Positions 1,465-5,814 of a stretch of 8,081 nt of DNA are shown here, piece by piece. The translations under genes and the position numbers were made by a program. The stretch is from a virus. Its lineage: Duplodnaviria > Heunggongvirae > Uroviricota > Caudoviricetes. The DNA is taken from IMG/VR virus record IMGVR_UViG_2541047163_000022; one strand, written 5' to 3'. Below the pieces are notes generated by a model, which saw only the letters and a program-made list of their open reading frames with translations, had not been told where the DNA came from and did no database searches. Every line of letters begins with the position of its first letter. Position 1 is the first letter of the stretch.

Positions 1465-1883
1465 TTCTCAATCTCTCGATGGCGCAGTGCAGCAGATGCC
1501 AGTTGTTCAAGCTAGCACGCAAATTGTAAACCAGAATGCCAGGAAAAAACAAAACCCGCCGAAGCTGGTTGTGTGCGGTTGCGTTGAAGTCTCCTAGCCA
1601 AAGAGTAGCGGTGACCACTCCCCGCCGATAATCTTAGTTGTTTAATTTCGTAAGCTAACTAGGCTAAAAGCTCTCTGTTGTCTGCCTGTTGTACAATTAA
1701 CAAAATGAACAACGAACTAGATATACCAACGCCAGAATGGTGCAACAAATCCCAAACAACACAGCAATGCAACAATAACATATGTTATTTTCCTCTCACG
1801 GGATTCAGTCCTGAATTCTCATAAAGCTAATCTTTTTTTAAAAACATACTGTTAGATCACATGCACTTTCTTTCTTAACATCG

Positions 1884-1911
1884 TTGACTTCGCATGCGAA
1901 GCGTTTAAAAT
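1884..1911 (+). promoter_or_regulatory. Sigma70-type promoter for the GHKL operon, with an embedded 14-bp perfect palindrome (candidate operator)
   Basis: TTGACT at 1884-1889, 16-nt spacer, TAAAAT at 1906-1911; predicted start about 1918, about 45 nt before the ATG at 1964. The perfect palindrome CTTCGCATGCGAAG at 1888-1901 spans the -35/spacer junction. Confidence 0.45.
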
Positions 1912-1963
1912 CAACAATTTGCACTTAAGGTATTTATTTTCCCAAACACATAGAGAGTAAATT

Positions 1964-3355
1964 ATGACTGAGAACACGACTCCAACAGCAGACTTTAGTC
2001 CTAGTAAAAGATTTTTTGTAAGTATGCTAACTCGAGATATCGACTTAAACGATGCCATACTTGATCTGCTTGATAACTGCGTCGATGGGGCTTTACGTAC
2101 AATAAAAGACACAAAAAAAACTTCAAAACCATATGAAGGATTTTATGCGAAACTTACGATTAATAAAGATGTCTTTATTATAGAAGACAATTGCGGAGGT
2201 ATCCCTAAAAGCTTCCGAGAATATGCTTTTAAAATGGGACGACCCCATCAAAAAGAAGAAGAAAATGAAGGCACCGTTGGCGTCTATGGTATTGGTATGA
2301 AAAGAGCCATTTTTAAAATGGGTAGAGATTGCTCAATACAATCGAATAATCCCGATGGCGCATTCACTGTAGATATAACACCTGATTGGATCGATGGTGA
2401 TGGTTGGAAAATACCGATGCACGAGAGTGACTATGATAACAAAAATCCAACAGGCACAACTATAGAGATAAAAAAACTCCATTCTAATGTGGCACAAAAA
2501 TTTAATGAGAGCACATATCTTACTGATCTCTTTTTACAGATAAAACACTCATTGTCATTTATTATTCAAAAAGGATTTAAAATAGAATTAAATGGAGTTG
2601 TTGTTGAACATAATCCGATTAACATCATAACTGATCATTCTAAAATAGAACCATACATATATAAAGCTAAAATAGACGATGTTGATATCGATTTAGTTGT
2701 TGGCTTCTATAAAAATTTAGAAGATGACAATGATGATGTTTTAGAAAAAAGGAGTTCTGATGATGCTGGATGGACTGTCATTTGCAATGACCGCGTTGTT
2801 CTATATTGTGATAAGACACATCTCACAGGTTGGGGCTTTGCTAATGTACCAAGGTTTCATACCCAATTTATAGCAATTTCTGGGGTTGTTCGCTTTACCA
2901 GTAAAAACCCAGAAAAATTACCAATAACAACAACGAAACGAGGTGTCGATCTTAGTTCTACATTGTACAATGATGTACGAAATAAAATGATTGAAGGGAT
3001 GATGCATTTTATTCGATTCACCAATCAGTGGAAAGGTGAGCATCTTGAAGAAGGGAAAAAATTACTTAAGTCAGCTCAGTCACATGAAGCTCAATCTTTA
3101 TTTGAAATTACCCCACAATCAACTCCAGAAGATAAAAAAAATAACTGGTCCAACCCTAATAGAAACAAAAATGAGTGGCGATATACACCTAAGCTGCCTA
3201 CCCCAGTAAAAAAAAGCTCTACTGTACGAATAATCTTCACCAGAGAGAAAGAAGATGTTAAAATTTTATCTAAATATTTCTTTGGACATGAAGATGCTAG
3301 CGCTTCTGATGTGGGGATGCAATGCTTTGATACGGTGATTGAAGAGGTGAAGTGA
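1964..3355 (+). CDS. GHKL-superfamily (Bergerat-fold) ATPase with N-terminal ATPase domain, MORC/MutL/GyrB-like arrangement; function in this context unknown
   Basis: 463 aa. Motif I D34-LLD-N38-CVDGA (E/DxxxNxxD N-box; codons checked at 2063-2092). Motif II IEDNCGGIP at residues 74-81 (compare GyrB-type DNGRGIP). Motif III G106-VY-G109-I-G111 (GxxGxG). ATG at 1964 preceded by an AGAGAG weak Shine-Dalgarno. Low GC. The stop TGA at 3353-3355 overlaps the next gene's start. Confidence 0.85.
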   Translation: MTENTTPTADFSPSKRFFVSMLTRDIDLNDAILDLLDNCVDGALRTIKDTKKTSKPYEGFYAKLTINKDVFIIEDNCGGIPKSFREYAFKMGRPHQKEEENEGTVGVYGIGMKRAIFKMGRDCSIQSNNPDGAFTVDITPDWIDGDGWKIPMHESDYDNKNPTGTTIEIKKLHSNVAQKFNESTYLTDLFLQIKHSLSFIIQKGFKIELNGVVVEHNPINIITDHSKIEPYIYKAKIDDVDIDLVVGFYKNLEDDNDDVLEKRSSDDAGWTVICNDRVVLYCDKTHLTGWGFANVPRFHTQFIAISGVVRFTSKNPEKLPITTTKRGVDLSSTLYNDVRNKMIEGMMHFIRFTNQWKGEHLEEGKKLLKSAQSHEAQSLFEITPQSTPEDKKNNWSNPNRNKNEWRYTPKLPTPVKKSSTVRIIFTREKEDVKILSKYFFGHEDASASDVGMQCFDTVIEEVK

Positions 3356-4344
3356 TGTCTGGACAATACATTCCCTATCACTTAAGGCATAATAAGTCTA
3401 TTGATAGAGAGATTTTTCTCGAAAGCCTAAACCTCTTAAGCAAAAGACTAAATATTCAAGAATATACATATATAGGTTTTGGTGGTCCGATGCTTGAAGA
3501 TTTTAGAATCATGCATAATCGTATCGCTCTTTCTGATATGATTTCTCTCGAAGAACAAGAGTCTACTCACATCAGACAAAAATATAATTTGCCTTATAAT
3601 TGTATTGATTGTAAGCTAATATCAGCTCATGACTTTATTCTTGATTATAGTTTTTCTAAACCATCAATAACATGGTTAGACTATGCCTCCCCGAAAAAAA
3701 TACAAACGGATCTAGATGATATACACTTACTAAGTACTAAAGTAAGCTCTTTTGATATTTTGAAGGTCACCTTCCCCATAAATCCTAGTTCTTATTACCA
3801 ACGTAGAGTTGGAGAAAGTTTAGATATTTTTAAAGAAGCTTTTATTAATTCATTAAAATCATTGCTTGGGAAAAAGTATCTTGATTTTAATCTTCAGATA
3901 TCAAATGCAGATCTTTCAGATCGTAAGATTAAAGCTCTTTTAATACGAATTATTACAAACGCTTTTAGATCAGCAATAGAACGTGGTCTTTCAGGACGTA
4001 AGGATAAGATTCAGTATTACCCATTATCCTTAAATCAATATAATGATGGCAGTCATACCATGTTGACAATATCAGGTTTTTTCTCCTCAGAACAAGAATA
4101 TATAGAGTTATCTAAGGCATGCGACCTTTCTAACTGGCAATTTTATTCAACAAATTGGGAAGACGTGCAAGAAATAGCAATACCAACACTAACAATTAAA
4201 GAAAAGATAAATTTAGATAGTAAACTGCCTGATAAAGAAGCATATCAGGCAGCCGCTGAAGAGTTCTCTTTAAACGAAAATGAACGGGATAACTATTATA
4301 AATACTATAGGTTATACCCTAACTTCCAAAGAATTATGGTTTAA
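3352..4344 (+). CDS. Hypothetical protein, translationally coupled partner of the GHKL ATPase; no recognisable catalytic motif (candidate effector or specificity subunit)
   Basis: 330-aa ORF. GTG at 3352 and ATG at 3355 both overlap the upstream stop (GTGATG); GAGGTGA Shine-Dalgarno at 3343-3349 favours the ATG at 3355. I found no PD-(D/E)xK, HNH, HEPN or Walker motif by eye. Same low GC as the upstream gene. Confidence 0.7.
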   Translation: MMSGQYIPYHLRHNKSIDREIFLESLNLLSKRLNIQEYTYIGFGGPMLEDFRIMHNRIALSDMISLEEQESTHIRQKYNLPYNCIDCKLISAHDFILDYSFSKPSITWLDYASPKKIQTDLDDIHLLSTKVSSFDILKVTFPINPSSYYQRRVGESLDIFKEAFINSLKSLLGKKYLDFNLQISNADLSDRKIKALLIRIITNAFRSAIERGLSGRKDKIQYYPLSLNQYNDGSHTMLTISGFFSSEQEYIELSKACDLSNWQFYSTNWEDVQEIAIPTLTIKEKINLDSKLPDKEAYQAAAEEFSLNENERDNYYKYYRLYPNFQRIMV

Positions 4345-5463
4345 ATATTCGGGCTGTACTCTTTTATTTAATAAATTGTACAGCCCCTTTAATATATATT
4401 CAGCAACTATTGGTGACACGCTATTTCCTATTTGTCTGAAACTATGCCATTTAGTTACATGAAAGCGAAACCAATCAGGGAAGCCTTGTAATCTAGCAGC
4501 TTCTCTTGGTGTAATCACTCTTGGATGATAAGGGTGGATCGGCCTGACGGCTTGAAAGCTTCCTTTATCTCTAGCGGTTCCCGCCCTTAAAGTCGGGCAA
4601 AAACCATTTGGATCTAATCTTGTAGATCTTGAAATTTTATCAGTTTCCCCAAAAGATAAGGAAGCATAACGCTCTTGGACGATTTTGCTATGTAATGTTC
4701 CGGTACATCCAGATATGATATTATTTTTTAACTTAGCGATCGATTCTGTATCACCAACATTCCGAGGGATCTGCCCCCATAATTTTTCATAAAATCCCCC
4801 TTTTCGATCTTTTTTAATTGTTCGCCAACTCTCAGAGTCTGATTGCCAATTGGCATCGATAATATCTGGTAATCCATACAAAGCATCTTTTACAGTAACC
4901 GGATCAATCATTTTAGGCATAAATACTTCATCTGAAATATCAAGCTTCAATGATTTTTTTACACCGATAAAAAAATATCTAGTTCGAATAGTTGGAGCAC
5001 CATAATCAGATGCTTTTACCTTGATGGGATCAAGAATATCATAATCACCGCTAACCAAATTAAATGCTTTATTTCTAATGCCAGAATATTTCTCTTGCAT
5101 AATACCTGGAACATTTTCTGCCAAAAAGAATAATGGCTGTAATTCTGATACTAAACGGTAGAAATGCATGTAAAGCTGATTCCTGCTATCATCAGGATTC
5201 CCCTTGCCTATTGAACTAAATCCTTGGCACGGAGGACCGCCAATAATACCATCTATGGGCATATCGTTTTTAAAAAAACCCTTAATTATTTCTGCATTTA
5301 GTAAAGAAACATCTTCTTGGACGTGCAAACTTCTTGGAAAATTAATTGCGTGAGTATTAATAGCATGTTGATCAATTTCAACTGCCATTTTAACATCAAA
5401 TCCAGCACGTGCAGCACCAAGACTTAGACCTCCAACGCCAGAAAACAAATCTATTACATTCAT
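4312..5463 (-). CDS. DNA (cytosine-5)-methyltransferase (Dcm/M.HhaI-type C5-MTase), full length, non-permuted
   Basis: 383 aa. Motif I FSGVGG (residues 7-12); motif IV GGPPCQGFS with catalytic Cys79 (TGC, rc of gca at 5227-5229); motif VI FFLAENVPG (E116-N117-V118); motif VIII-like PTIRTRYFFIGV; motif IX REAARLQGFPDWFRF; motif X GNSVSPIVAEYI. Variable region between VIII and IX about 150 aa. ATG at 5463. Confidence 0.92.
   Translation of the reverse strand: MNVIDLFSGVGGLSLGAARAGFDVKMAVEIDQHAINTHAINFPRSLHVQEDVSLLNAEIIKGFFKNDMPIDGIIGGPPCQGFSSIGKGNPDDSRNQLYMHFYRLVSELQPLFFLAENVPGIMQEKYSGIRNKAFNLVSGDYDILDPIKVKASDYGAPTIRTRYFFIGVKKSLKLDISDEVFMPKMIDPVTVKDALYGLPDIIDANWQSDSESWRTIKKDRKGGFYEKLWGQIPRNVGDTESIAKLKNNIISGCTGTLHSKIVQERYASLSFGETDKISRSTRLDPNGFCPTLRAGTARDKGSFQAVRPIHPYHPRVITPREAARLQGFPDWFRFHVTKWHSFRQIGNSVSPIVAEYILKGLYNLLNKRVQPEYLNHNSLEVRV
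4351..4386 (+). terminator. Stem-loop immediately 3' of the GHKL operon (possible terminator or RNA-stability element), embedded in the 3' coding end of the convergent methyltransferase
   Basis: GGGCTGTAC (4351-4359) and GTACAGCCC (4378-4386) form a 9-bp perfect inverted repeat around an 18-nt AT-rich loop, followed by CCCTTTAATATATATT. It begins 7 nt after the TAA at 4342-4344. The loop is long for a canonical intrinsic terminator. Confidence 0.3.
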
Positions 5464-5495
5464 ATAGTTGCAACGTCTCTTATTAGTTTCTATGT

Positions 5496-5525
5496 ATTAT
5501 AACACAACTGTTCTTGATGTTTTAA
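5496..5525 (-). promoter_or_regulatory. Sigma70-type promoter with extended -10 for the methyltransferase
   Basis: - strand reads TTAAAA (5525-5520), 18-nt spacer, TGTTATAAT (5504-5496), i.e. TGn plus a consensus TATAAT. Predicted start about 5489, about 26 nt before the ATG at 5463. Confidence 0.45.
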
Positions 5526-5725
5526 CCCCATAAGATAACCTCATAAAGGCTATCCCTTGAAAATACCGGATCGCATAAATTTAATCTTTCAAAACTACTT
5601 GTCTATTAATCGAGCAATTTAAGGTTGTTTTAGTCATGTCGATACCGACATAGTTAACTAAACCCATTTCATCGTCCAACAAATGGGGGTAATACACTTT
5701 GATTTATAGTCGGGTGGGTTTTTCT

Positions 5726-5761
5726 CTATCTGCCTTTGGTGTTCATGCCCAAGGCAGATAG
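5726..5761. repeat. Near-perfect 12-13 bp inverted repeat (hairpin or protein-binding palindrome) near the right edge of the islet
   Basis: Left arm TATCTGCCTTTGG at 5727-5739, right arm CCAAGGCAGATA at 5749-5760, 9-nt loop, one bulged T, plus a closing C5726-G5761 pair. No U-run follows on either strand, so it is not a canonical intrinsic terminator. Confidence 0.5.
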
Positions 5762-5814
5762 CCTCAAGCACCCGCAGCAATTCTACTTAACTATCCTTTT
5801 CCCGCAAATCGTTT

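Follow-up and report, generated by a model that had tools for sequence, protein, structure and literature searches.

Covarying stem-loops as candidate transcript-end signals in the overlapping tails of convergent genes of a prophage cargo cassette

In Escherichia coli, stem-loops such as repetitive extragenic palindromic (REP)-type elements and the stabilisers of 3' untranslated regions (UTRs) stop 3' exonuclease trimming of transcripts that were terminated by Rho or have been read through. In the overlapping bidirectional terminators of convergent E. coli genes a stem-loop of the nascent RNA, unlike that of intrinsic terminators, pauses the polymerase and positions head-on collisions (bioRxiv 10.1101/2022.10.23.513370); the resulting transcripts have overlapping 3' ends. 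Wang et al. (bioRxiv 10.1101/2022.10.23.513370) credit these terminators to Ju et al. 2019. Two other groups of systems are relevant here. Antisense control has been described for the restriction-modification (R-M) systems EcoRI and Eco29kI and promoter interference for SsoII/Ecl18kI (PMC3141266, PMC12707154), and R-M-like systems have been predicted from the linkage of GHKL (MORC/paraMORC) ATPases to Dcm-type methylases (Iyer, Abhiman & Aravind 2008, PMC2292703). The subject of this paper is a convergent gene pair on the IMG/VR record IMGVR_UViG_2541047163_000022 (Caudoviricetes), a stretch of 8,081 nt which we call the window. The + strand carries genes for a GHKL ATPase and a PF20553 'putative O-methyltransferase' (O-MTase), and a C5 DNA cytosine methyltransferase gene (MTase) faces them on the - strand. 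The window is best explained as containing a three-gene, low-GC cargo cassette of the E. coli O157:H7 prophage Sp10 which is organised in two convergent transcription units, each with its own predicted promoter. Most likely, the junction of the two units is a compact variant of ordinary convergent-gene termination, in which the signals have been split in two and embedded in the coding tails.

The O-MTase and MTase genes overlap at their 3' ends by 33 bp (4312..4344, both strands), which corresponds to the last 10 codons plus the stop codon of each gene. As the first-pass annotation of the window had stated, the + strand gene ends at 4344 and the MTase gene at 4312; the stop codon of the former is TAA at 4342-4344 and that of the MTase is the reverse complement of 4312-4314. 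The same overlap is annotated in strain Sakai (ECs_1954/ECs_1953) and by PGAP in EDL933. Hairpin 1 (4351..4386, + strand), the proposed 3' stem-loop of the GHKL/O-MTase transcript, consists of GGGCTGTAC at 4351-4359 and GTACAGCCC at 4378-4386. It had been noticed as a 9-bp inverted repeat just 3' of the + strand stop and within the MTase tail; all 9 bp are indeed perfect, and the repeat begins at the 7th nt past the O-MTase stop. It encodes G360-P371 of the 383 MTase residues, i.e. the codons 13-24 from the end. The stem includes 6 G-C pairs and encloses a loop of 18 nt with 3 inner pairs (the loop is reduced to 8 nt only if three weak inner A-U pairs form). Folding of the 56-nt segment gave -17.2 kcal/mol on the + strand and -17.6 kcal/mol on the - strand (z = -5.7 and -5.4), and none of 200 shuffled sequences was as stable. 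Equally stable 50-nt windows make up just 0.9% of those in the whole window, and only 5% of dinucleotide-shuffled windows contained, at any position, a 9-bp inverted repeat that was perfect and had 6 or more G+C. Taken alone, hairpin 1 is modestly beyond chance; the energetics of a single sequence are not decisive, position and comparative evidence are.

For this comparison, loci were fetched from a graded series of O-MTase homologues obtained by protein search, from 90% down to 31% identity; a single-protein metagenome scan contributed just 4 more. The end of the MTase gene falls exactly 33 bp within the O-MTase gene in another 11 lineages, whose O-MTases are 54-89% identical to that of the window (L065, L087, L129, L067, L068, L088/L121, L070, L130, L072 and L132). 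These overlap lineages are lambdoid prophages with several insertion sites and chromosomal islands. The overlap is always exactly 33 bp because a conserved Leu codon (TTA/CTA) of the O-MTase gene supplies, read in antisense, the MTase stop. Hairpin 1 was present in all 13 clade-A loci, beginning 2-12 nt past the O-MTase stop, with energies of -14 to -29 kcal/mol that fell within the lowest 0-1.3% of the background of each locus. Its axis of symmetry is constant across the overlap lineages and the sequence of the stem differs between them.

Covariation was assessed in an alignment of 12 sequences, one for each lineage, with O-MTases 54-100% identical. In register, 82.3% of the alignment cells paired, compared to 24-47% when the partner was slid by 1-3 columns. 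Changes on both sides were seen in 13 of the 16 pairs, a number reached in none of 500 shuffles (8.8 ± 1.5). There were also 38 double-change cells (shuffles 14.3 ± 2.9; 0/500 as high) and 31 extra pair types (24.0 ± 2.2; 1/500). Because the lineages are related these shuffle counts are not probabilities, which weighs against taking them at face value; the measures based on pair counts and type counts have a documented false-positive rate of 0-1% on related sequences. The cells deviating from Watson-Crick pairing were skewed with respect to the strand: 21 were G-T on the + strand (G-U in its RNA) and 2 were A-C (G-U on the - strand). Column composition predicts a ratio of about 69:31 (binomial P ~0.01, with relatedness ignored). 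A null model built on the count difference under column shuffles was uninformative, since shuffles create far more non-pairs, and the ratio among wobble-type cells was used together with the energies of the individual lineages. The + strand fold was more stable than the - strand fold in 11 of the 12 lineages, the exception being the window. The bias of the wobbles and of the energies therefore points to selection on the + strand RNA, that is on the GHKL/O-MTase transcript. Moreover, the segment coding for the hairpin is the least conserved part of the MTase protein (mean pairwise identity 30%, compared to 76% in the core, 60% in the last helix and 56% in the final 8 residues), yet its pairing is kept; selection on RNA structure would thus override protein conservation in the MTase tail. 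From these comparisons we consider it very probable that hairpin 1 genuinely exists as a structure of the + strand RNA and is under selection. The suggestion of the first-pass annotation that it serves the GHKL operon as a 'terminator or stabiliser' is strengthened by its conservation through covariation, at a fixed site 3' of the O-MTase stop, in every close lineage.

A folding scan revealed a second stem on the other side of the overlap. Hairpin 2 (4225..4252, - strand) is formed by CTGCCTGAT at 4225-4233 and ATCAGGCAG at 4244-4252 and has a stem of 9-10 bp and a loop of 10 nt. It lies inside codons of the O-MTase (L-P-D...Y-Q-A), 60 nt beyond the MTase stop in the direction of the - strand, and folds with -18.9 kcal/mol on the + strand and -19.2 kcal/mol on the - strand. 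It was found at a fixed position in all 11 overlap lineages tested (-14 to -20 kcal/mol) and was absent from the non-overlap relatives L074 and L075 (-6 and -9 kcal/mol). Here the bias is towards the - strand: 90.7% of the cells paired on this strand vs 83.3% on the + strand, and 11 G-U wobbles were counted on the - strand vs 3 on the + strand. Seven double-change cells were observed where shuffles gave 1.9 ± 1.1 (0/500 as high). Hairpin 2 is proposed as the 3' stem-loop of the MTase-strand transcript and as the mirror image of hairpin 1. The two stems are situated about 100 nt apart with opposite strand polarity, and both stop codons lie between them.

The same arrangement of two hairpins exists in a second clade. 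In clade B, found mostly in P2-like and lambdoid prophages, the O-MTase is 32-36% and the MTase 59-66% identical to the proteins of the window, and the genes overlap by 40 or 50 bp. The + side stem of clade B uses other codons, one arm being the antisense of the GNSV motif, and exists in the compensatory variants GGTAATAGC/GCTATTACC, GGTAACAGC/GCTGTTACC and GGCAATAGC/GCTATTGCC. A - strand stem was located 2-50 nt past the MTase stop; this result comes from a scan for the best fold within 160 nt and is supportive only.

It seems probable, judging from conservation and position, that the stems serve to define where the two convergent transcripts end, each unit carrying its stem within the coding tail of the other. 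Hairpin 1 would define or protect the 3' end of the GHKL/O-MTase mRNA. It might do so by making RNA polymerase pause or by weak termination, in the manner of the collision terminators of convergent E. coli genes, where a hairpin positions the head-on encounter, or it might block 3' exonucleases once transcripts have been read through or terminated by Rho, a mode which is equally compatible with the data. Hairpin 2 would have the same role for the - strand transcript. Each stem is weaker on the strand where it is inside a translated open reading frame (ORF) and stronger where the RNA is untranslated; therefore translation would gate its activity. On its translated strand each stem would be silent, as ribosomes unwind it and wobble pairs become C-A mismatches, and it would be active on the strand where it is untranslated. 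If the stems mark the transcript ends, the two mRNAs would be complementary over about 160-170 nt (roughly 4225-4386). The earlier statement that the units are probably 'mutually antisense at their 3' ends' is in this respect a reasonable one, as the predicted promoters of both units are conserved and the stems bracket about 160 nt that the two transcripts would have in common. Its companion claim, that there is no room for independent terminators, is not supported, since either strand has a specific stem of its own, placed within the coding tail of the gene opposite.

By analogy, the closest described mechanism appears to be the overlapping bidirectional terminator of convergent E. coli genes. 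Like those pairs, the locus consists of convergent genes with their own (here predicted) promoters and has a stem-loop at the boundary and no classical terminator sequence. The relatives L074 and L075 display exactly that layout, with one Watson-Crick stem in a spacer of 28-58 nt. The lineage of the window differs in having no intergenic DNA and in the replacement of the single palindrome by two stems of opposite polarity. A single symmetric stem that could serve both directions does not occur in the overlap lineage and was found only in L074, L075 and L073, which lack the overlap. The likeness to exonuclease-stopping stem-loops lies in a stable stem without U tract just past a stop codon and in strand-specific selection on the RNA; hairpin 1 differs from them in not being a repeated (REP-like) element. 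With a Rho-independent terminator hairpin 1 shares a covarying, G+C-containing stem directly 3' of the stop followed by a short T run, and it differs by having 2-5 T in 8 nt, a long loop (11-18 nt) and a position within the translated ORF of the other strand. If the proposal is correct, the junction shows how far transcript-end signals can be compacted, since after loss of the spacer a shared bidirectional stem appears to have been replaced by two polarity-specific ones. It would also provide a natural, covariation-backed case for translation-gated intragenic terminators and for collision-type termination at convergent genes.

Several observations weigh against a role of the stems at transcript ends, or at least narrow it. 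No canonical U tract follows hairpin 1: CTTTAATA of the window contains 4 T in the 8 nt past the stem and the relatives have 2-5, where about 5 or more would be regarded as U-rich. The T run itself (CTTT) derives from a Lys codon in the gene opposite. With 18 nt, the loop is longer than is usual in intrinsic terminators (short loops have 3-8 nt; those of the relatives have 7-13 nt), and a scan with a terminator consensus found no terminator at the junction. The label of an intrinsic terminator was accordingly rejected for either stem, for want of a canonical U tract and of a match at the junction. In Rfam no family matched at hairpin 1 or hairpin 2, and apart from the sok-like match described below only a noise-level rli31 was seen. 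The stem of the window is entirely Watson-Crick and both strands fold equally well, so the argument from polarity rests on the relatives. An equally stable 50-nt window was found in 15 of 40 dinucleotide shuffles of the 4-kb low-GC island. For hairpin 2 the support is weaker: the region is 78% identical from protein constraint, and the more robust pair and type counts were reached by 13-99 of 500 shuffles. Finally, distant loci with a co-directional MTase show no consistent stem past the O-MTase stop and fold there at background level. A stem at this place was for that reason rejected as a general feature of the family, and the stems belong to the convergent, prophage-borne clades.

It might be asked how genes that may once have ended apart came to overlap. 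In the non-overlap relatives L074 (53% identity) and L075 (47% identity) the genes are separated by spacers of 58 and 28 nt, respectively. Their MTases terminate about 15 aa past the GNSVSP motif (...LKPLYNLCK), while those of the overlap lineage are about 17 residues longer. The additional part is a C-terminal extension (aa 367-383 plus stop; 4312..4365, - strand) not present in the non-overlapping relatives. The spacer of both L074 and L075 contains one perfectly Watson-Crick stem of equal stability on both strands, which in L075 is flanked by A and T runs in the layout of a classical bidirectional terminator. In L073 and L131 a second GHKL gene has been inserted and a canonical terminator of stem and T run follows the O-MTase gene, in L073 a 16-bp stem with TTTTT. 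In the simplest reading the overlap is probably a by-product of compaction, with the original MTase stop lost and the RNA stem kept. The MTase frame would have lost the stop that is still present in the relatives ahead of the intergenic bidirectional stem, and would then have run through the hairpin to the next in-frame stop, thereby adding about 17 poorly conserved residues. The final 8 of them are the antisense of the conserved O-MTase C-terminus YRLYPNFQR. The extension is thus a potential pitfall for annotation, being probably a by-product. In the inserted loci the second GHKL protein (608 aa) adjoins the C5-MTase (5208-7034 in L073 and 3774-5600 in L131) and the canonical terminator separates the two units; weaker GHKL matches beside the MTase were seen in L011, L015, L019, L028 and L058. 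A much longer overlap occurs in L026 (4646-4999), a betaproteobacterial metagenome-assembled genome (MAG), where the MTase frame extends 354 bp into the O-MTase gene in antisense, far beyond any other locus; this could be an artefact of assembly or frame, or real.

Alternatively, the overlap might exist for the sake of mutual antisense, with convergent transcription or an RNA duplex tuning 'restriction' by the GHKL operon against modification by the MTase, as the first-pass annotation had proposed. The conserved predicted promoters of both units fit this idea, as do the roughly 160 nt of complementary 3' ends that the conserved stems would leave and the recurrence of tail-to-tail packing or overlap in two clades and several distant convergent loci. 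The prediction of Iyer et al. for GHKL/paraMORC ATPases linked to Dcm methylases and the antisense control known in some R-M systems lend it further plausibility (PMC2292703; PMC3141266, PMC12707154). However, searches of Pfam, PADLOC, NCBIfam and PDB sequences and fold searches detected no nuclease domain in either of the + strand proteins. The system also works without convergence. The GHKL-PF20553 gene pair is constant across 49 analysable distant loci, and the placement of the MTase varies: about 20 loci have it upstream and co-directional, 7 downstream and co-directional, 17 downstream and convergent (13 of them tight) and 1 upstream and divergent, and 4 have none within 4 kb. With the MTase co-directional in about 27 of 49 loci, neither convergence nor overlap is therefore an inherent property of the system. 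Some close relatives do without the overlap, having instead a spacer of 28 or 58 nt or an inserted gene plus canonical terminator, and the conserved stems look as if they limited read-through into the partner rather than promoting it. Nor did the antisense precedents considered here include the convergent R-M gene pairs invoked earlier. The published systems resemble the cassette in combining a DNA methyltransferase with partner genes on a mobile element and in the possibility of antisense RNA between them. In EcoRI, Eco29kI and SsoII/Ecl18kI, however, the control is exerted by reverse promoters inside the R gene or by interference of close promoters, the genes are co-directional or divergent with no convergent 3' overlap, and a genuine endonuclease belongs to the system; the cassette has its complementarity at the 3' ends instead, and an endonuclease could not be identified in it. 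Common to the cassette and the systems of Iyer et al. are the close linkage of a GHKL plus transducer-fold ATPase with a C5 methylase, the location on mobile DNA and a scattered occurrence across phyla. In the systems of Iyer et al. the partner is a helicase or nuclease, whereas the constant partner here is a Rossmann methyltransferase-like PF20553 protein. Our GHKL protein could not be placed in a named paraMORC family, and no linked superfamily II helicase or endonuclease was found in the three-gene cassette or in the gene tables of its close relatives; distant loci were not systematically examined for these. A regulatory tuning of the restriction-to-modification ratio is thus unsupported and we consider it unlikely as the reason for the overlap, and a restriction-like role of the cassette is possible but unproven.

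A different kind of regulation could be connected with the state of the prophage. In the lysogen the stems would insulate the two units from each other; on induction, N- or Q-antiterminated transcription would read through hairpin 2 and across GHKL/O-MTase in antisense, raising MTase expression and silencing GHKL/O-MTase during replication of the phage DNA. In all 8 prophage contexts with both flanks on one strand the MTase is on the strand of the flanks, at no fewer than 3 insertion sites and in both clades. The sites lie after the replication genes, in the nin region, and between Q and the lysis genes, and the essential genes downstream (Q, or holin/lysozyme) can be reached only by transcription through the cassette. 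Because the MTase strand is the phage strand, antiterminated transcription has to pass through the cassette, reading the MTase in sense and GHKL/PF20553 in antisense. The lack of strong U tracts would be compatible with read-through by a modified polymerase. If the switch existed, induction would yield a 2.4-kb antisense RNA against GHKL/O-MTase and boost the MTase, the phage would have its progeny DNA methylated and turn off the cargo system that it carries, and during lysogeny the stems would keep the two units from silencing each other. The argument rests entirely on gene orientation, though, and cargo operons against the direction of phage transcription are common among prophage morons, for which no special switch is needed. 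In L068, L070 and L091 the cassette is located between convergent host or phage genes where no read-through is required. We therefore judge such a mechanism improbable. It is equally doubtful that the stems and the MTase-with-phage orientation amount to a life-cycle switch of a nuclease-less, methylation-linked defence or epigenetic system, composed of GHKL, Rossmann-methyltransferase-like and Dcm proteins and widespread across bacterial phyla. That hairpin 1 acts in the MTase mRNA, where it might slow ribosomes or stabilise the molecule near its end, or as a DNA cruciform or recombination site at a module junction, is very unlikely. The perfectly Watson-Crick stem of the window is marginally more stable on the - strand, it lies at the border between the conserved MTase domain and the extension, and the different degrees of identity in clade B (33% for the O-MTase, 62-66% for the MTase) suggest shuffling of modules near the junction. 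The 21 wobbles against 2 and 11 of the 12 energy comparisons nevertheless favour the + strand RNA. A DNA palindrome would not tolerate G-T pairs, the unconserved stem sequence speaks against the site of a sequence-specific recombinase, and in relatives with an earlier MTase stop the stem stays beside the O-MTase stop, outside the MTase ORF. Lastly, overlap and inverted repeat might be neutral accidents of an AT-rich and repeat-rich cassette. Palindromes are common here (9 perfect inverted repeats of at least 9 bp in the window), the shuffled islands mentioned above often contain an equally stable window somewhere (15 of 40), and the length of the overlap is fixed merely by the next in-frame stop. 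This explanation is largely refuted by the covariation, with 13 of 16 pairs changed on both sides around an axis fixed over 12 lineages. In addition, a stem has arisen anew and independently in clade B, in the spacers between genes and next to an inserted gene, and the pairing is kept in the least conserved segment of the protein. Chance is accordingly rejected as sole explanation, and a purely neutral origin is highly improbable. The preferred reading remains that of two stems which would mark the ends of the convergent transcripts.

Each of the two units is preceded by its own predicted promoter, and the two top-scoring gene-facing promoter-like sites of the window are those directly upstream of the units. 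A predicted sigma-70 promoter of the GHKL/O-MTase operon (TTGACT-16-TAAAAT; 1884..1911, + strand) is the joint best promoter-like match of the window (10/12). A site of the form TTGAC[T/A]-N17-TAnnAT upstream of GHKL is kept in 6 lineages, in which the upstream DNA has otherwise diverged. The MTase has a predicted extended -10 promoter, TTAAAA-18-TGTTATAAT (5496..5525, - strand), with a 10/12 match and a TG, and TGnTAnAnT is kept about 33 nt upstream of the MTase ATG in 9 of 10 lineages. In a microarray study of 2007, ECs1954 and ECs1955 were expressed in the lysogen and changed together at the transition from exponential to stationary phase (-2.6x and -3.2x), without ECs1953 (PMC2241611). A sok-like antitoxin RNA (5649-5773, - strand), with an inverted repeat at 5726-5736/5751-5761, was detected where the low-GC cassette borders on its flank, immediately upstream of the predicted MTase promoter. 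It matched Rfam RF01794 with 50.2 bits, below the gathering score of 59 (E = 3.9e-9), and the region is about 95% identical at the DNA level to the one annotated as sokW in phage 933W. This suggests a hok/sok-type module beside the cargo.

Bases 1700-5800 of the window are 100% identical to prophage Sp10 of E. coli O157:H7 Sakai (ECs_1953-1955) and to EDL933, and the same bases were found, 100% identical or nearly so, in 172 of 5,426 complete E. coli genomes. Position x of the window corresponds to 1940589 - x in NC_002695.2, whose - strand is the + strand of the window. The three genes form an island of 31-38% G+C between flanks of 45-56%, located in the nin region with the phage replication genes on one side and the gene of the Q antiterminator on the other. 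The GHKL ATPase (463 aa; 1964..3355, + strand) contains PF13589 at aa 28-132 and corresponds to phrog_20521, of unknown function in PHROGs. Its structural model (predicted local distance difference test, pLDDT, 82.5) has a GHKL plus transducer fold and matches the N+M domains of Hsp90/TRAP1, the ATPase module of SMCHD1 and that of topo IV with E ~1e-12 to 1e-13. The PF20553 protein (329 aa; 3355..4344, + strand; phrog_19983, likewise of unknown function in PHROGs) was confidently modelled (pLDDT 88) with the fold of a class-I Rossmann S-adenosylmethionine (SAM) methyltransferase, and its structural matches are only distant (template-modelling (TM) score 0.3-0.4; Trm1, BamL and others). The end at 4344 that the first-pass annotation gave for this gene stands, and its size of 330 aa has to be corrected: that figure corresponds to a GTG start at 3352, and annotators use the ATG at 3355. 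The stop codon of GHKL and the start codon of PF20553 overlap as TGATG (3353-3357), the same one-base overlap being called in all close relatives; this is consistent with translational coupling of the two + strand genes. The C5-MTase (383 aa; 4312..5463, - strand) is covered by PF00145 over aa 1-361 (2.6e-61) and matches TIGR00675 (dcm) and PADLOC MTase_II (2e-98). For the GHKL and PF20553 proteins there was no family in PADLOC and NCBIfam, and PDB sequence searches with these + strand proteins gave no match. A full-text literature search found no paper on PF20553 (Methyltransf_35), and one for ECs1953-1955 found only one paper on comparative genomic hybridisation (CGH) and one microarray paper. 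A paper on a GHKL protein of V. cholerae was set aside, as it deals with a Shedu-type GHKL-nuclease fusion, a different system. The 9 perfect inverted repeats of the window (at least 9 bp, loop 3-30) compare with about 1 expected from shuffles, and AT-rich ones cluster inside the PF20553 gene at 3852-3933 and 3999-4032.

The trio of GHKL, PF20553 and C5-MTase genes is conserved in many bacterial phyla and in one archaeal MAG (loci L003-L132), and more than 5,400 GHKL clusters scored E < 1e-10. Of 62 genome loci the large majority have a C5-MTase within 4 kb, as do nearly all of the 49 viral loci. Neither the GHKL nor the PF20553 protein is represented by a model in PADLOC 2023, and the trio is a candidate for an uncharacterised defence or epigenetic system. 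The analysis also flags a widespread GHKL/PF20553/Dcm cassette in cargo hot spots of prophages that is not covered by current models of defence systems. Within prophages, cassettes were located in the nin region (the window, L067 and L074), after the replication genes (L065, L109 and L129) and, in the P2-like prophage L091, between gpA and the portal gene. Those of L072 and L132 occupy the gap from Q to holin/lysozyme, the same spot as stx in Shiga-toxin phages.

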